Below are positions 4,502 to 57,433 of a stretch of DNA of 64,000 nt, one piece after another. The position numbers and the translations under genes are program-made. Within the stretch, counting starts at the first letter, position 1. Each line of letters opens with the position of its first letter. This stretch comes from Escherichia coli (GTDB lineage: Bacteria; Pseudomonadota; Gammaproteobacteria; Enterobacterales; Enterobacteriaceae). The stretch lies in assembly GCF_044324875.1 (NCBI RefSeq), contig NZ_CP172185.1; one strand, given 5' to 3'. A model generated the notes under the pieces. It saw nothing but the letters and a program-made list of their open reading frames with translations, searched no databases and was not told the origin of the DNA.

Positions 4502-5215
4502 TCAGAGCGGGTTCTTTTTGTTGCGAATAAGGTTGAGGCTTTCAACCGCAATAGAGAAGAACATCGCGAAGTAGATGTAACCTTTCGGTACGTGGATGTC
4601 GAAACTTTCCAGAATCAGGGTAAAGCCCACCAGAATCAGGAAAGAGAGCGCCAGCATTTTTACCGAAGGATGGCGTTCGACAAAATCACCAATCGAGCGC
4701 GCGGCAAACATCATCACGCCTACGGCAATCACCACGGCTGCCATCATAATAAACAGGTGATCTGACAGACCCACAGCGGTAATCACCGAGTCGAGGCTGA
4801 AGATAATATCCAGCAGCATAATCTGCACGATAGCGCCGAGGAATGATGAAACGCGTGTTTTCAGCCCTTCTTCTTCACCTTCAATGGATTCGTGGATTTC
4901 CTTGCTGGCTTTCCAGATAAGGAACAAGCCACCCAGAAGCAGAATCAAATCACGGGCGGAAATTTCCTGGCTGAATATTGTAAAAAGCGGATTCGTCAGG
5001 CGCGTAACCCAGGCGATTGATGCCAGCAGCGCCAGACGCATAACCATGGCTCCCGCCAACCCCAGACGCCGCGCATGAGCACGTTGTGCTGTGGGGAGCT
5101 TTGCCACCACCAGAGAAAGGAAAATAATATTGTCGATCCCAAGAACGATCTCCAGCAGCGTCAGCGTACCGAGCGCAAGCCAGGCGTTAGGATCGGTTAT
5201 CCATGCAAATAACAT
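4502..5215 (-). CDS. ygdQ: TerC-family integral membrane protein
   Basis: 237-aa hydrophobic ORF; conserved position between ygdR and mutH. Confidence 0.85.
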
Positions 5216-5283
5216 CTAAAAAGCCCTGCCAAAAAAATGAAGCGGTAATTATATGCCCGGAAAGCGGCAGGTCAAAGCGATGG

Positions 5284-5973
5284 CTACTGGATCAGAAAAT
5301 GACGGGCCAGTAGCGCACTGGTGAAATTCTTCTTCAAATAAAATCCGCGCGGCAGCGTCAGAATCCGTTCGCCCCGGGCACCAATGGCTTCGGTCAGCGC
5401 TTTCGCATTCGCTGCTTTCGGTCGTATCTGTAAATATTCCCCGTGACGAGCGGTAATCCGCTCAACCTGACCGAGAACAATCATATCCATTAATTCTTCC
5501 CAGTCTTCGCGTAGCTGTCGGTCTTCCTCTTCATTCGGGCTCCACAGTAACGGTGATCCTACGCGACGCTGCGCCAGCGGGATGCTGCGCTCGCCTTCAA
5601 CCGGTATCCACAGTACGCGTTTGAGCTTGTGGCGTACGTGGCTGGTTTCCCAGGTCACCCCGCTATTACCCGTTAACGGGGCAACACAAACGAATGTTGT
5701 TTCCAGCGGACGACCAAGACTATCCACAGGGATAGTTTTAAGTTCCACGCCCAGGGCAGCAAAATCTTGCTCAGGTTTACTTCCTGCGCTGGCACCTAGC
5801 CAGATCTCCAGTAACACGCCAATCCAGCCCTTATCGCGTTTTAAATTCTCTGGTGTAACCAGCCCGGCAAGTGCCGCCAGTTCTCCCAATGTATAACCAG
5901 AAAGTTGCTGTGCTTGCGCTAACAACTGTTCTTCAGTTTCGGGAGGAGAGAGCAGTGGGCGAGGTTGGGACAT
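5284..5973 (-). CDS. mutH: DNA mismatch repair endonuclease MutH
   Basis: 229-aa ORF recognised as MutH; conserved neighbourhood. Confidence 0.92.
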
Positions 5974-6149
5974 GTCACGATACCTTGGTTAAAAAACAAA
6001 CAGCAATTATGTGCCGAATATTCGCAGTGTAACTTTTTCCACATGCGTTGTTCAATTCTCTGATTTATATTGCTTTTTAGGCTTCCTGTAATCGAGTTGC
6101 GCAACACTGCAATGGGTTTTCCAAATCTGGTCACTGAAAATAAACAGGA

Positions 6150-6520
6150 TCTTACACCATGTTATCCACAGAAAGCTGGGATAACTGTGAAAAACCTCCA
6201 CTACTGTTTCCATTTACAGCCTTGACGTGCGACGAAACTCCAGTTTTTAGTGGTTCAGTGCTTAACTTAGTGGCACATTCTGTGGATAAATACGGCATTG
6301 GTTGATCTTTCGCCAACCCGTAAATGAGAGGTGTGACCTGGGTCACGAATTACTCTTTTTTATTACTAAAATTACATGTAATGCATTGACTGATAATGAA
6401 TATTTTAAAATGTCTATATCGGGCTTATTCAGAATGCTCCGGGTTTTCCCGTAGTAATTCCGTAGTTCTTCACAACTCTATCCACAGAAAAGGTGAATAA
6501 AAACGGCTATCCACCCATTC
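6150..6520. promoter_or_regulatory. DARS2-like DnaA-reactivating sequence (DnaA-box cluster) plus divergent mutH / rppH-ptsP promoter region
   Basis: Perfect DnaA boxes TTATCCACA at 6162..6170 (+) and 6281..6289 (-), near-consensus cTATCCACA at 6478..6486 and TATCCACC at 6508..6515; DARS2 is described in the mutH-ygdP(rppH) intergenic region. Confidence 0.55.
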
Positions 6521-50777: not shown

Positions 50778-51143
50778 GTCGACAGGGAGTCAGACAACGA
50801 AGTGAACATCAGGATGATGACACTTCTGAAGGACACACCAGGATGGTGTTTCAGGGAAAGGCTTCTGGATGAAGCGAAGAGGATGACGCAGGACGCGTTA
50901 AAGGACACCTCCAGGATGGAGAATGAGAACCGGTCAGGATGATTCGGTGGGTCAGGAAGGCCAGGGACACTTCAGGATGAAGTATCACATCGGGGTGGTG
51001 TGAGCAGGAAGCAATAGTTCAGGATGAACGATTGGCCGCAAGGCCAGAGGAAAAGTTGTCAAGGATGAGCAGGGAGCAACAAAAGTAGCTGGAATGCTGC
51101 GAAACGAACCGGGAGCACTGTGAATACAGTGCTCCCTTTTTTT
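50778..51143 (+). ncRNA. csrB: CsrB small RNA (CsrA-sequestering, multiple GGA motifs)
   Basis: About 366 nt with roughly 15-18 repeats of CAGGA(U/A/C)G-like motifs (catCAGGATGatg, acCAGGATGgtg, tCAGGATGatt, ttCAGGATGaag, ttCAGGATGaac, cAAGGATGag ...) and terminal hairpin gggagcactgtgaatacagtgctccc + T7; boundaries approximate. Confidence 0.85.
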
Positions 51144-51188
51144 ATTCCTGCTATTCTTCGCGGCAGTTTTTCTTATTGAGGTTGCTTT

Positions 51189-52317: not shown

Positions 52318-52767
52318 ATGGCGGAAATTGGTATTTTTGTCGGCACCATGTACGGAAATTCGCTGTTAGTGGCGGAAGAAGCAGAAGCAATTCTGACCGC
52401 ACAGGGCCACAAAGCAACGGTATTTGAAGATCCTGAATTAAGCGACTGGCTGCCCTATCAGGATAAGTATGTTCTGGTGGTTACGTCCACGACCGGGCAG
52501 GGCGACCTTCCTGATAGCATTGTGCCGCTCTTTCAGGGAATCAAAGATACCCTGGGCTTCCAGCCGAATCTGCGTTATGGCGTGATTGCGCTCGGCGACA
52601 GTAGTTATGTGAATTTCTGCAATGGCGGCAAACAGTTCGATGCCTTGTTGCAGGAACAGAGCGCTCAGCGAGTGGGAGAAATGCTGTTGATTGACGCCAG
52701 TGAGAACCCGGAACCGGAAACGGAATCAAATCCGTGGGTCGAACATTGGGGCACGCTGTTGTCCTGA
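52318..52767 (+). CDS. yqcA: flavodoxin-like protein
   Basis: 149-aa ORF with flavodoxin fold signature ([10 protein letters not shown]..). Confidence 0.9.
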
Positions 52768-53201
52768 TACGTTCAGCGAGCGGTAAATGCCGTTTTAGCG
52801 GTGCTGAATCGAATCTTTTCAGGCAAATGCCAGTAAAAACTGCTTCATAGCGCGGATTTTTACTGGCGTTTGCCTGGAGTCAAGCGATCCATTTCATACT
52901 CTTCTTTATTTCTTCGTTTTAACCCTTCCTTTCTTGTTCTTGTTTTCATTTCCGTGAAGTGGATTCCACCGTCCAGGGCTAATGCCAAAATCGGGCCTCA
53001 TTGAACGCATTAATGTTGTGTTGTTGCACGGTGAGCCACTATGGCGCGCTTTTTATACTGCTATTGCCAGATATAAACACGCGCCGTATTCGGCGAACGA
53101 CCTATAAAAACGGCAAAAAACACCCTACGTCACCTCTGATTTCCTGGCGATGTCGCAGTCCAGAGTGAGCGTGGCTAACGCGAATTTTCAGGAGTGCAAC
53201 A

Positions 53202-54554
53202 ATGAGTTCTTTAAGTCAGGCTGCGAGCAGTGTGGAAAAACGCACAAATGCTCGTTACTGGATAGTGGTGATGTTGTTTATCGTCACATCCTTCAACTAC
53301 GGCGACCGCGCTACGCTTTCTATTGCCGGTTCGGAAATGGCCAAAGATATCGGCCTTGATCCCGTGGGAATGGGCTATGTGTTCTCTGCTTTCTCATGGG
53401 CTTATGTTATCGGACAGATCCCTGGTGGTTGGTTGCTGGATCGTTTTGGTTCAAAACGCGTCTACTTCTGGTCGATCTTTATCTGGTCGATGTTTACCTT
53501 GCTGCAAGGCTTCGTCGATATTTTTAGTGGATTCGGCATTATCGTTGCCCTGTTTACGCTGCGCTTCCTGGTCGGGCTTGCTGAAGCGCCATCTTTCCCC
53601 GGCAACAGTCGCATTGTTGCGGCCTGGTTTCCGGCGCAGGAAAGGGGAACGGCGGTGTCGATTTTTAACTCCGCTCAATACTTCGCAACGGTGATCTTCG
53701 CGCCGATTATGGGCTGGCTGACGCATGAAGTGGGCTGGTCACACGTCTTCTTCTTTATGGGCGGTCTGGGCATTGTCATCAGCTTTATCTGGTTGAAAGT
53801 CATCCACGAGCCAAATCAACATCCGGGTGTAAATCAGAAAGAGCTGGAGTACATCGCCGCGGGTGGCGCGCTGATCAATATGGATCAGCAAAATACCAAA
53901 GTTAAAGTGCCGTTCAGCGTGAAGTGGGGGCAGATCAAACAGCTGCTCGGGTCACGGATGATGATCGGCGTTTATATCGGTCAGTACTGTATCAACGCCC
54001 TGACTTACTTTTTCATTACCTGGTTTCCGGTTTATCTGGTGCAGGCGCGTGGGATGTCGATCCTGAAAGCGGGCTTTGTGGCTTCCGTTCCGGCGGTTTG
54101 CGGTTTTATCGGCGGTGTGCTGGGTGGGATTATTTCCGACTGGCTGATGCGCCGCACGGGATCGCTGAACATTGCGCGTAAAACACCGATCGTAATGGGC
54201 ATGTTGCTGTCGATGGTGATGGTGTTCTGCAACTACGTCAACGTTGAGTGGATGATCATCGGTTTTATGGCGCTGGCCTTCTTCGGTAAGGGCATCGGGG
54301 CGCTGGGTTGGGCAGTAATGGCAGATACCGCGCCAAAAGAGATCAGCGGTCTTTCCGGTGGCCTGTTCAACATGTTCGGTAACATTTCTGGCATCGTCAC
54401 GCCAATCGCAATTGGTTATATCGTTGGCACGACTGGCTCGTTTAATGGGGCGCTGATTTATGTTGGTGTTCATGCCTTAATCGCGGTGCTGAGCTACCTG
54501 GTGCTGGTGGGCGATATCAAGCGTATCGAGCTGAAACCTGTCGCGGGGCAATAA
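53202..54554 (+). CDS. gudP: D-glucarate/galactarate transporter (MFS)
   Basis: 450-aa multi-TM ORF at head of gudPXD. Confidence 0.92.
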
Positions 54555-57331: not shown

Positions 57332-57433
57332 CCCCCTCGCCCTTTCAGGGAGAGGGGCGGGGTGAGGGTAATCATTCGCACTTGCGTTGGCCTGTTCCCC
57401 TCACCCTAACCCTCTCCCCGGAGGGGCGAGGGG
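57332..57433. repeat. large imperfect palindrome (about 37-bp G/C-rich arms, about 28-nt spacer) between convergent gudD and barA
   Basis: Left arm ccccctcgccctttcagggagaggggcggggtgaggg vs right arm cccctcaccctaaccctctccccggaggggcgagggg are near reverse complements. Confidence 0.55.

Follow-up and report, generated by a model that had tools for sequence, protein, structure and literature searches.

Intrinsic terminators require a stable hairpin within a few nucleotides of a U-tract, and those that work in both directions carry an A-tract before the hairpin in addition to the U-tract after it. Long perfect stems in RNA can also be substrates for processing. E. coli RNase III needs about two helical turns of duplex, and it cuts stems of this kind in E. 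coli mRNAs, the rnc and pnp leaders being well-known cases. REP/BIME elements are extragenic palindromes which lie downstream of operons and act as stabilisers of mRNA 3′ ends.

A further class of 3′ stem-loops is linked to the Rho factor. It has been reported that Rho-dependent transcripts of E. coli end just after stable stem-loops which have no U-tract and which are followed by sequence richer in C than in G (Dar and Sorek 2018, PMC6061677). PNPase and RNase II trim the RNA back to such stem-loops, and it was suggested in the same study that terminators can switch class in evolution.

The spacer between yqcA and gudP of E. coli holds a genuine, conserved, and unannotated RNA stem-loop, which is located in the yqcA 3′ UTR. 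The best reading is to file this hairpin with the known U-tract-less 3′ stem-loops linked to Rho-dependent termination. In particular, the palindrome could well be the 3′-UTR stem-loop of the yqcC-truC-yqcA mRNA, a remodelled terminator which now serves mainly as an exonuclease barrier, with Rho termination taking place downstream; this account as a whole is held with middling confidence.

Locus, structure, and conservation of the stem-loop

In E. coli, yqcC, truC, and yqcA are followed by gudP, and all four genes lie on the + strand, as given by the list of open reading frames and by the RefSeq annotation of identical DNA and of K-12. Positions are those of the window, that is, the whole 64-kb stretch of DNA that was analysed. 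They are converted by the relation x = 2975302 − K-12 NC_000913.3 position, where x is the window position and the locus is on the K-12 minus strand. The K-12 hairpin is identical to that of the window. The features of the locus are the following.

50787–51146, + strand: CsrB, upstream of the spacer (Rfam match)
52318–52767, + strand: coding sequence of yqcA (flavodoxin), the last gene of yqcC-truC-yqcA (list of open reading frames; RefSeq annotation of identical E. coli DNA and of K-12)
52804–52811, + strand: conserved motif 5′ of the hairpin, CTGAATCG (alignments A1 and A2; anchor spacing of 75–76 nt to GTCAAGCGA)
52817–52839, + strand: 5′ arm of the 23-bp helix, with GGCAAATGCC, kept across genera, and the A5 tract 52835–52839 (RNAfold, pair list)
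52840–52856, + strand: apical region, with a weak 4-bp mini-hairpin CTGC/GCGG, an 8-nt loop, and −3.3 kcal/mol (fold)
52857–52861, + strand: T5 run topping the 3′ arm (alignments A1 and A2, T counts)
52857–52879, + strand: 3′ arm of the 23-bp helix, with TTTGCCTGGAG as its basal part (fold, alignments, pair list)
52880–52960, + strand: pyrimidine-rich, G-poor tract, a candidate Rho loading (rut) region (composition, fold, invariant columns)
53184, + strand: peak of a Rho region, equivalent to K-12 2922118 on the − strand (entries listed in supplementary file 2 of Adams et al. 2021, PMC7815308)
53202, + strand: gudP ATG (list of open reading frames, RefSeq annotation)

The yqcA-gudP spacer measures 434 nt, and neither K-12 RefSeq nor PGAP annotates any feature in it. 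A preliminary description of this DNA, made from the sequence alone, had reported an inverted repeat in the spacer at 52822–52874 and had given its distances to the neighbouring genes. Both distances are borne out: the last base of the yqcA stop codon is 52767, which leaves 54 nt to the arm as it was then drawn, and the gudP ATG stands at 53202. The repeat itself is as described, with arms ggcaaatgccagtaaaaa and tttttactggcgtttgcc, a 17-nt spacer, and one T-G position at 52828/52868. The repeat is thus real, but the arm length of 18 bp was an underestimate. The helix pairs 52817–52839 with 52857–52879 in 23 consecutive pairs, 20 of them Watson-Crick and 3 G-U, with no mismatch.

The structure is far more stable than expected from base composition. 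The + strand RNA folds at −46.3 kcal/mol in RNAfold, as compared to −22.2 ± 3.4 kcal/mol for its shuffles (z = −7.1; none of 200 as good). The − strand fold is weaker by 8 kcal/mol (−38.3 kcal/mol, z = −5.4), because on this strand the G-U positions turn into A-C mismatches. Approximately 0.003 arm pairs of this kind are expected by chance in 64 kb, counting at least 17 of 18 matching arm positions and a spacer of up to 60 nt. Indeed, the window contains only 10 local inverted repeats of at least 16 nt, among which the hairpin is the second longest. Two small open reading frames, of 38 aa and 44 aa, span the stem in the list of open reading frames; they were rejected as genes, having non-ATG starts and overlapping the stem or its variable loop.

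The element is nearly universal in the species. It is found, as are bases 52700–53250 in general, in 5,425 of 5,426 complete E. coli genomes, and it is at least 99% identical in 4,938; several swine ETEC chromosomes are 100% identical over bases 52700–53250. The few polymorphisms seen in E. coli are placed in the loop or upstream of the stem, outside the stem itself. Searches by blastn with 11-nt words located the element at one place in the median E. coli genome and at no more than two in any. The element is single-copy and therefore not a REP-like family. It resembles REP/BIME elements in being an extragenic palindrome downstream of an operon, and REP-like sequence (GCCGGGTAAGGCG...) takes the place of the hairpin in the same spacer of several other Enterobacteriaceae; it differs from them in its single copy, in lacking the REP consensus, and in its AT-rich apex.

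An origin as a dispersed repeat or MITE was considered and rejected, since the element is single-copy and its distribution is wide enough for an ancestral origin with repeated loss. Two loosely similar octamers, TGAATCGA and TCAAGCGA, flank the element with 6 of 8 positions identical, and some genera carry the second octamer only, which resembles an empty site. By the authors' estimate the match between the octamers is not significant once offsets are allowed.

The embedded U-run and the comparison across genera

It had been stated in the preliminary description that no T-run follows the repeat on either strand. This holds after the complete stem, where the sequence is GTCAAGCGATCC on the + strand and TGAAAAGATTCG on the − strand, but it does not hold for the palindrome itself, since the T5 run at 52857–52861 lies within the 3′ arm and pairs in the stem with A5 at 52835–52839. 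No U-rich stretch with 5 or more T in 8 nt lies directly 3′ of the 23-bp stem, the sequence there being TCAAGCGATCC, and the terminator scan returned no terminator-like site at the full stem on either strand. The earlier judgement that the hairpin is not a canonical intrinsic terminator is therefore correct. The same scan found no other terminator-like site on the + strand from yqcA to gudP.

The hairpin which does abut the U-run is the CTGC...GCGG mini-hairpin, spanning 52840–52855 directly before T5. Its 4 bp, 8-nt loop, and −3.3 kcal/mol fall short of the stable stem next to a U-tract that characterizes a canonical terminator; a hairpin of this size and energy is not strong enough to make intrinsic termination efficient. 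Two further Escherichia lineages (L005 and L006) keep the long stem, and the hairpin at this place drops to 0 kcal/mol in them. When U5 is in the hybrid only the 4-bp mini-hairpin can form, and therefore inefficient release is expected there. The E. coli element retains A5 and T5 in the same register as the A-tract and U-tract of bidirectional terminators. It departs from intrinsic terminators in the 4-bp size of the hairpin at the U-run, in pairing that runs 18 bp past this run, and in having nothing U-rich after the stem.

The comparative set covered 80 of 145 loci of YqcA relatives, with one genome per species, and consisted of the sequence downstream of each stop codon. It shows a spacer built of modules. 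Module A comprises the motif ACTGAATCGnGTTAGC, followed by GGCAAATGCC and then by the hairpin. The longer motif is carried by other genera, while E. coli retains its first half only. Module A occurs in Escherichia, part of Citrobacter, Salmonella, Superficieibacter, Silvania, Kosakonia, and Phytobacter; it is reduced in Raoultella-like genomes, and Enterobacter, Leclercia, the C. freundii group, and others lack it. In genomes without module A, yqcA is often followed by REP-like sequence or directly by a GC-rich hairpin only. Module B starts with TCAAGnGA-N6-TTCAnAnT, the best conserved block of the spacer (52880–52901; invariant columns). The spacing is rigid: 75–76 nt separate the motif from module B, with 71–72 nt to TTTCCGTGAAG and 62 nt to AATGTTGTGTTGTTGCACGGTGAG. 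The last two blocks are upstream of the TATACT −10 box at 53056–53061.

In the genera other than Escherichia, a small hairpin whose sequence varies occupies the centre of module A, and a T5-T6 run comes after it. Hairpins of this kind are CCTTTC-ATTT-GAAAGG, CCGC-AAAA-GCGG, and CCGC-ATCTTAC-GCGG. An A-tract usually lies 5′ of these inner hairpins, and a further 9–10 bp pair outside them (AAATGCCnG/CnGGCRTTT). The inner hairpins are weak, at −3 to −6 kcal/mol. With a small hairpin, a T5-T6 run, and usually a matching A-tract, the homologs of Citrobacter, Salmonella, Superficieibacter, and Raoultella resemble intrinsic terminators, and the copy of Citrobacter sp. MGH106 passes the terminator scan on both strands. 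Judged by their sequences, the homologs of these four genera look like a weak intrinsic terminator. The T-run that follows the small hairpin survives in about 19 of 27 sequences and is the best-kept part of the 3′ arm elsewhere. Within Escherichia the apical sequence is variable; a 6-bp AU-rich hairpin takes its place in other genera.

Pairing across genera was evaluated in an alignment of 27 sequences. In register, 67% of the cells are paired, as compared to 31–48% when the partners are slid by 1–3 columns, and the pair formed by columns 44 and 76 covaries (C-G 8, A-U 7, U-A 3). RNAalifold on 15 hairpin-bearing sequences yields a 10-pair core with one compensatory pair and a weak consensus of −5.75 kcal/mol. 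Support for an RNA reading from covariation is thin, consisting of this one clearly compensatory pair and a weak consensus. The preliminary description had named conservation with compensatory changes across Enterobacteriaceae as a check on the palindrome, and the outcome is mixed. E. coli shares a core of 10–12 bp with Citrobacter, Salmonella, and Superficieibacter, and there is one pair with clear covariation (A-U 7, C-G 3, U-A 2), but the basal 10 bp are specific to Escherichia. Among cells that are not Watson-Crick, G-U exceeds A-C by 24 to 2 in Escherichia and by 88 to 46 in the whole alignment, counts which are not phylogenetically independent. This bias favours a palindrome that acts as RNA of the + (mRNA) strand.

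The strand bias also bears on a role in double-stranded DNA, in which the palindrome would be a protein-binding site or a cruciform-prone element of the gudPXD upstream region. The fixed distances of the hairpin region (75–76, 71–72, and 62 nt) to conserved blocks upstream of the gudP promoter would suit such a role, GGCAnnTGCC is itself a small conserved DNA palindrome, and the most conserved block of the spacer adjoins the stem. However, arms of 18–23 bp with a 17-bp spacer are unlike known operators, and the stem is more than 175 bp upstream of the gudP −10 box. The arms covary instead of being fixed, and one arm position most often holds T/G, a combination that lacks symmetry in DNA and forms a wobble pair in + strand RNA. 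In addition, the spacer between the arms is 10 nt shorter in Salmonella, and its sequence is free to vary. The suggestion of a protein-binding palindrome, made in the preliminary description, thus finds no support in the G-U asymmetry or in a loop whose length differs by 10 nt between genera, and a role at the DNA level is regarded as highly improbable. The upstream regions of garP-garD and of gud were compared, and no convincing common regulator motif was found.

A promoter scan picked up a promoter-like sequence on the − strand, TTGACT-16-AAAAAT, inside the 3′ arm. An antisense promoter was rejected: its −10 element lacks the final T in all other genera, and the one match equals the shuffle expectation of 0.9.

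The extension of the stem can be assigned to one genus. Of the cells in the middle 12 bp, 97% are paired in Escherichia and 81% in Citrobacter, Salmonella, and Superficieibacter, whereas the basal 10 bp are paired in 98% of cells in Escherichia and in 44–59% elsewhere. Basal pairing is high only in Escherichia, and therefore the long stem is a genus-specific extension. The 3′ flank, which is TTTTCAyngg in every other genus, is TTTGCCTGGAG in Escherichia, and every one of the differences adds a pair with the 5′ sequence TTCAGGCAAA, which is widely conserved. Conversely, the apical hairpin of Escherichia has decayed, with energies from −4.7 to 0 kcal/mol.

These alignments point to a clear ancestry of the hairpin in an intrinsic terminator, of which the embedded T5 would be the relic of the U-tract. 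The ancestor was probably a weak intrinsic terminator at the same position in many Enterobacteriaceae, made of a small hairpin and a U-run, with an A-tract and some extra pairing. In the Escherichia lineage the apical hairpin would have decayed, and a few substitutions on the 3′ side would have stretched the helix to 23 bp. With the helix lengthened to this extent the U-run became buried in the stem, and therefore no U-tract remains after it. The earlier interpretation was right on a terminator that is not canonical and on a link to Rho or to a 3′ end; it missed the embedded T-run and hence the terminator ancestry.

A possible but rather doubtful alternative is that the ancestral terminator still works, in a leaky form. 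The polymerase would pause on U5, and the apical hairpin, aided by NusA, would free some transcripts at approximately 52861–52865, while the remaining palindrome would merely zip up later. The T-run after the small hairpin is, in this regard, the best-kept feature of the 3′ arm across genera, and the fact that Escherichia, too, has kept it suggests that intrinsic termination persists to some degree. In other genera the hairpins are scarcely stronger than that of E. coli, the Citrobacter homolog satisfies the scan on both strands, and the operon has no other terminator. Nevertheless, the E. coli site is not called by the scan, its apical stem is as short and weak as described and reaches 0 kcal/mol in L005 and L006, and no 3′ end is present here among the Term-seq entries listed by Adams et al. 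(2021, PMC7815308). From the entries of the same source, a downstream/upstream ratio of 0.80 under bicyclomycin leaves little room for stops that are independent of Rho, with the caveat that transcripts from the gudP promoter may contribute. Leaky termination of this kind is compatible with the reading as a remodelled terminator that serves as exonuclease barrier, and does not exclude it.

The lengthened stem also raises the possibility of an RNase III processing site. The duplex would form only on transcripts that have passed the U-run, and its cleavage would uncouple the yqcA mRNA from the gudP read-through RNA and set the stability of both RNAs. The 23 uninterrupted pairs reach the required duplex length of about 20 bp or more, and the lengthening is derived and apparently selected in Escherichia, as several substitutions are involved and all of them create pairs. 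The stem is similar to those of the rnc and pnp leaders in its uninterrupted duplex of about two helical turns; it differs in its location in a 3′ UTR and in being a predicted substrate only. On the other hand, a long stem is equally explained as a stronger block to exonucleases, and the homologous stems elsewhere, with no more than about 18 pairs and with interruptions, are well under the approximately 20 bp needed. A processing site is judged improbable.

Rho and the spacer downstream of the stem

The sequence that follows the stem has the composition expected for Rho. The tract at 52880–52960 contains 20 C, 8 G, and 41 T in 81 nt, and the GC skew reaches its minimum of −0.43 at 52880–52959, the strongest C>G skew of the region, which starts at the foot of the stem. 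Little internal structure is predicted in the tract, except for one 12-bp helix closing a loop of about 56 nt. The first 22 nt form the most conserved block of the spacer, and the tract has a fixed length of 71–72 nt across genera, with conserved blocks at both ends. The composition of the tract may instead serve the architecture of the gudP promoter.

A Rho-dependent loss of signal across the spacer has been reported. According to the entries listed by Adams et al. (2021, PMC7815308), a Rho score of 3.98 (p = 9e-8) is assigned to K-12 2922118. The downstream/upstream reads given there are 23/114 in untreated cells and 90/112 with bicyclomycin, so that read-through rises from 0.20 to 0.80; these values refer to 800-nt windows (PMC7815308). 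The peak, at window position 53184, falls about 300 nt past the stem, in the gudP leader, right after the second of two conserved leader hairpins. The signal may thus reflect attenuation of transcripts from the gudP promoter and not read-through from yqcA.

The 3′-end data are negative in the range covered. No 3′ end falls in K-12 2922000–2922999 among the Term-seq entries listed by Adams et al. (2021, PMC7815308), and the stable end predicted at the foot of the stem (approximately K-12 2922423) is absent from these entries. The missing end is possibly explained by low expression. The entries listed in the Cappable-seq and SMRT-Cappable-seq supplements likewise include nothing for the yqcA-gudP locus.

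As compared to the class of Dar and Sorek (PMC6061677), the hairpin is a stable sense-strand stem-loop soon after a stop codon, with its helix beginning 50 nt after that of yqcA, and no U-rich tract follows the stem. C exceeds G directly downstream (skew −0.43). The bicyclomycin-sensitive drop in signal across the spacer would also suit the class, but it may belong to gudP-leader transcripts and not to yqcA read-through. The yqcA stem differs from the class in being far longer than usual (23 bp) and in concealing the A5 and U5 tracts, a trace of its terminator ancestry. It differs also in the dominant steady-state 3′ end just after the stem, which defines the class and which is not among the Term-seq entries listed by Adams et al. 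(PMC7815308). The proposal of a Rho-linked or RNA 3′-end role, raised in the preliminary description, is made plausible by the rut-like C>G tract after the stem and by the published Rho region in the spacer.

The sequence of events would then be as follows. RNA polymerase would mostly read through, and the long hairpin would snap shut behind it. Rho would load on the unstructured C>G pyrimidine tract, from the foot of the stem onwards, and would halt transcription before or at the gudP start. Subsequently, 3′-to-5′ exonucleases would trim the tail to the hairpin, which would then protect the mRNA. The tract as the loading site of Rho and the foot of the stem as the mature 3′ end are what we infer from this arrangement.

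If this account is correct, the yqcC-truC-yqcA operon gains a defined 3′ end, which the annotation does not give. It would also explain how a constitutive housekeeping operon avoids reading into the inducible glucarate operon 330 nt downstream. Moreover, it would provide a clean and datable switch from intrinsic to Rho-dependent, stem-loop-protected termination, brought about by a handful of substitutions in one genus. Such switching of terminator class was proposed by Dar and Sorek in general terms only, and the comparison between genera fits a class switch displayed in progress. The use of the case would be in annotation and in benchmarks for terminator prediction, with no concept changed.

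The motif upstream of the hairpin and the gudP leader

The motif just 5′ of the hairpin, conserved as ACTGAATCGnGTTAGC in many genera, draws attention to small regulatory RNAs. The hairpin would be the 3′ end of such an RNA, processed from the yqcA 3′ UTR or transcribed from its own promoter, and the motif would be its seed. In Citrobacter and Salmonella the motif, ACUGAAUCGUGUUAGC, is indeed complementary to the gudP leader GCUAACRCGAAAAUUCAGGAG, GCUAACGCGAAAAUUCAG, beside the Shine-Dalgarno sequence, with a duplex of −19 to −23.5 kcal/mol. None of 300 shuffles matched this energy. Among approximately 4,600–6,400 windows of the same strand the duplex ranks first in two loci (L008 and L023) and twelfth in a third, and the next-best chance windows are within 1–2 kcal/mol of it.

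The complementarity does not extend to E. coli, which is without the complementary half of the motif; the duplex there has −7 kcal/mol and comes 3415th among 5910 windows. Kosakonia, Phytobacter, and Escherichia are without the complementarity, and in Silvania and Superficieibacter it is not significant. Motif and leader are each conserved in clades that are unable to pair, and pairing of the motif with the leader was rejected as an explanation of the E. coli element on account of its absence in Escherichia and its low rank.

The other hallmarks of a small RNA point in the same direction. A search of Rfam 15 gave no credible match to the spacer, at E ≤ 10 in the window and at E ≤ 1 in six other genera, and only CsrB, upstream, was recovered. 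The RIL-seq-derived tables list yqcA as a CDS node only, with an sRNA probability of 0.0002, and contain no node for its 3′ UTR or for the spacer. There is no conserved promoter upstream, and the stem has no U-tail for Hfq; the element thus lacks the U-tail and the 3′-UTR listing by which Hfq-dependent 3′-UTR-derived sRNAs are recognised. The unannotated small RNA put forward in the preliminary description is hence not supported, neither Rfam nor the RIL-seq tables nor a conserved promoter speaking for it, and it is considered very unlikely.

A related and similarly improbable view, although slightly less so, takes the hairpin as the Escherichia remnant of an old enterobacterial non-coding element, composed of ACUGAAUCGnGUUAGC and a terminator-like hairpin, which ancestrally controlled the glucarate transporter gene at the RNA level. 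The motif of Citrobacter and Salmonella can form a duplex of 15–16 bp with the gudP leader beside the ribosome-binding site. It could work in cis, within read-through transcripts, or in trans, as an RNA derived from the 3′ UTR. In E. coli this pairing would have been lost and maybe replaced by the 23-bp stem, which would insulate gudP via Rho loading and/or RNase III cleavage. The pairing of motif and leader is best taken as a hint on the ancestral role of module A, and not as an explanation of the E. coli hairpin.

Conserved sequence next to the hairpin

The best-conserved block of the entire yqcA-gudP spacer is window 52880-52901, which adjoins the hairpin of the yqcA 3′ UTR (52817-52839 paired with 52857-52879, + strand). 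In E. coli it reads TCAAGCGA-N6-TTCATAC, and its invariant pattern, TCAAGnGA...TTCAnAnT, is found in 27 sequences from 10+ genera. From the likely gudP start the block is some 176 bp upstream, and a constant 71-72 nt separate it from the conserved block that follows, TTTCCGTGAAG..TTCCAC. Judged by its sequence against the CRP consensus, the block looks like a CRP site in which one half-site is good (aGcGA-N6-TCAcA).

The predicted fold of this region contains a long-range pairing:

52886-52897 with 52954-52965, GATCCATTTCAT / GTGAAGTGGATT: 12 bp

This pairing is predicted to enclose the pyrimidine-rich tract, a candidate Rho loading region, as a 56-nt loop, and it links two conserved blocks, TTTCAyAC and CGTGAAG; in all genera, each of these is an inverted copy of the other. 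The fold that includes it is only marginally better than those of shuffled sequences (z = -1.9).

In one strain, E. coli 2014C-4135 (L085), foreign DNA is inserted directly after GTCAAG, at the equivalent of window 52884/52885; some 80 nt beyond that point an IS66-family tnpA is annotated. The insertion interrupts the conserved block that adjoins the hairpin on its 3′ side; the stem is undamaged.

The gudP leader

The gudP 5′ leader (window 53131-53184) is conserved across 55 species and contains two hairpins, both with compensatory changes. No Rfam family matched it.

Helix 1: CACCTCTGA/TCAGAGTG in E. coli, CATTCTGA/TCAGAATG in most genera, CATCCTGT/ACAGGATG in Kosakonia
Helix 2: GCGT/ACGC in E. 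coli, CTGGC/GCCAG in the C. freundii group

A published Rho termination peak at K-12 position 2922118 corresponds to window 53184 (Adams et al. 2021, PMC7815308), and sits just after helix 2, 18 nt 5′ of the gudP ATG. The leader could act as a Rho-dependent attenuator.

The motif that precedes the homologous hairpin on its 5′ side in Citrobacter and Salmonella, ACTGAATCGTGTTAGC, is reverse-complementary to the stretch of gudP leader beside the Shine-Dalgarno sequence.

L008 3527-3545: motif complementary to the gudP leader of the same locus; the same in L022-L025

The motif-leader duplex in these two genera has 10 + 5 bp and a bulge of 3 nt, with an energy of -19 to -23.5 kcal/mol, and in L008 and L023 it ranks first among about 4,600-6,400 windows. 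The complementarity has been lost in Escherichia and is absent in Kosakonia and Phytobacter.

Variation of the yqcA 3′ UTR among relatives

Many Enterobacteriaceae carry an extra GC-rich hairpin right after the yqcA stop:

First ~45 nt past the yqcA stop: CCCTCCC..GGGAGGG hairpin (L008, L009, L022-L025, L047-L052, L062-L064 and others)

Further conserved sequence, GCCAGTAAGC...AACGACC, separates it from the motif and the main hairpin. E. coli, with a 3′ UTR about 60 nt shorter, has neither of these elements.

Kosakonia and Phytobacter (L049, L051, L052, L062, L064) keep the 5′ half of the element, namely the motif, GGCnnnTGCC and GTAAAA, and have an A-run in place of the T-run in the 3′ arm (e.g. 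GGTGAAAAGTGC), so that the hairpin cannot form there. Since the 5′ half is kept without a hairpin, its conservation must have a cause other than the stem.

Elsewhere, the longest local inverted repeat of the window is G/C-rich and lies at 57333-57433, with 39-nt arms (CCCCTCGCCC...GGGGCGAGGGG) that are 82% complementary and separated by a 23-nt spacer.
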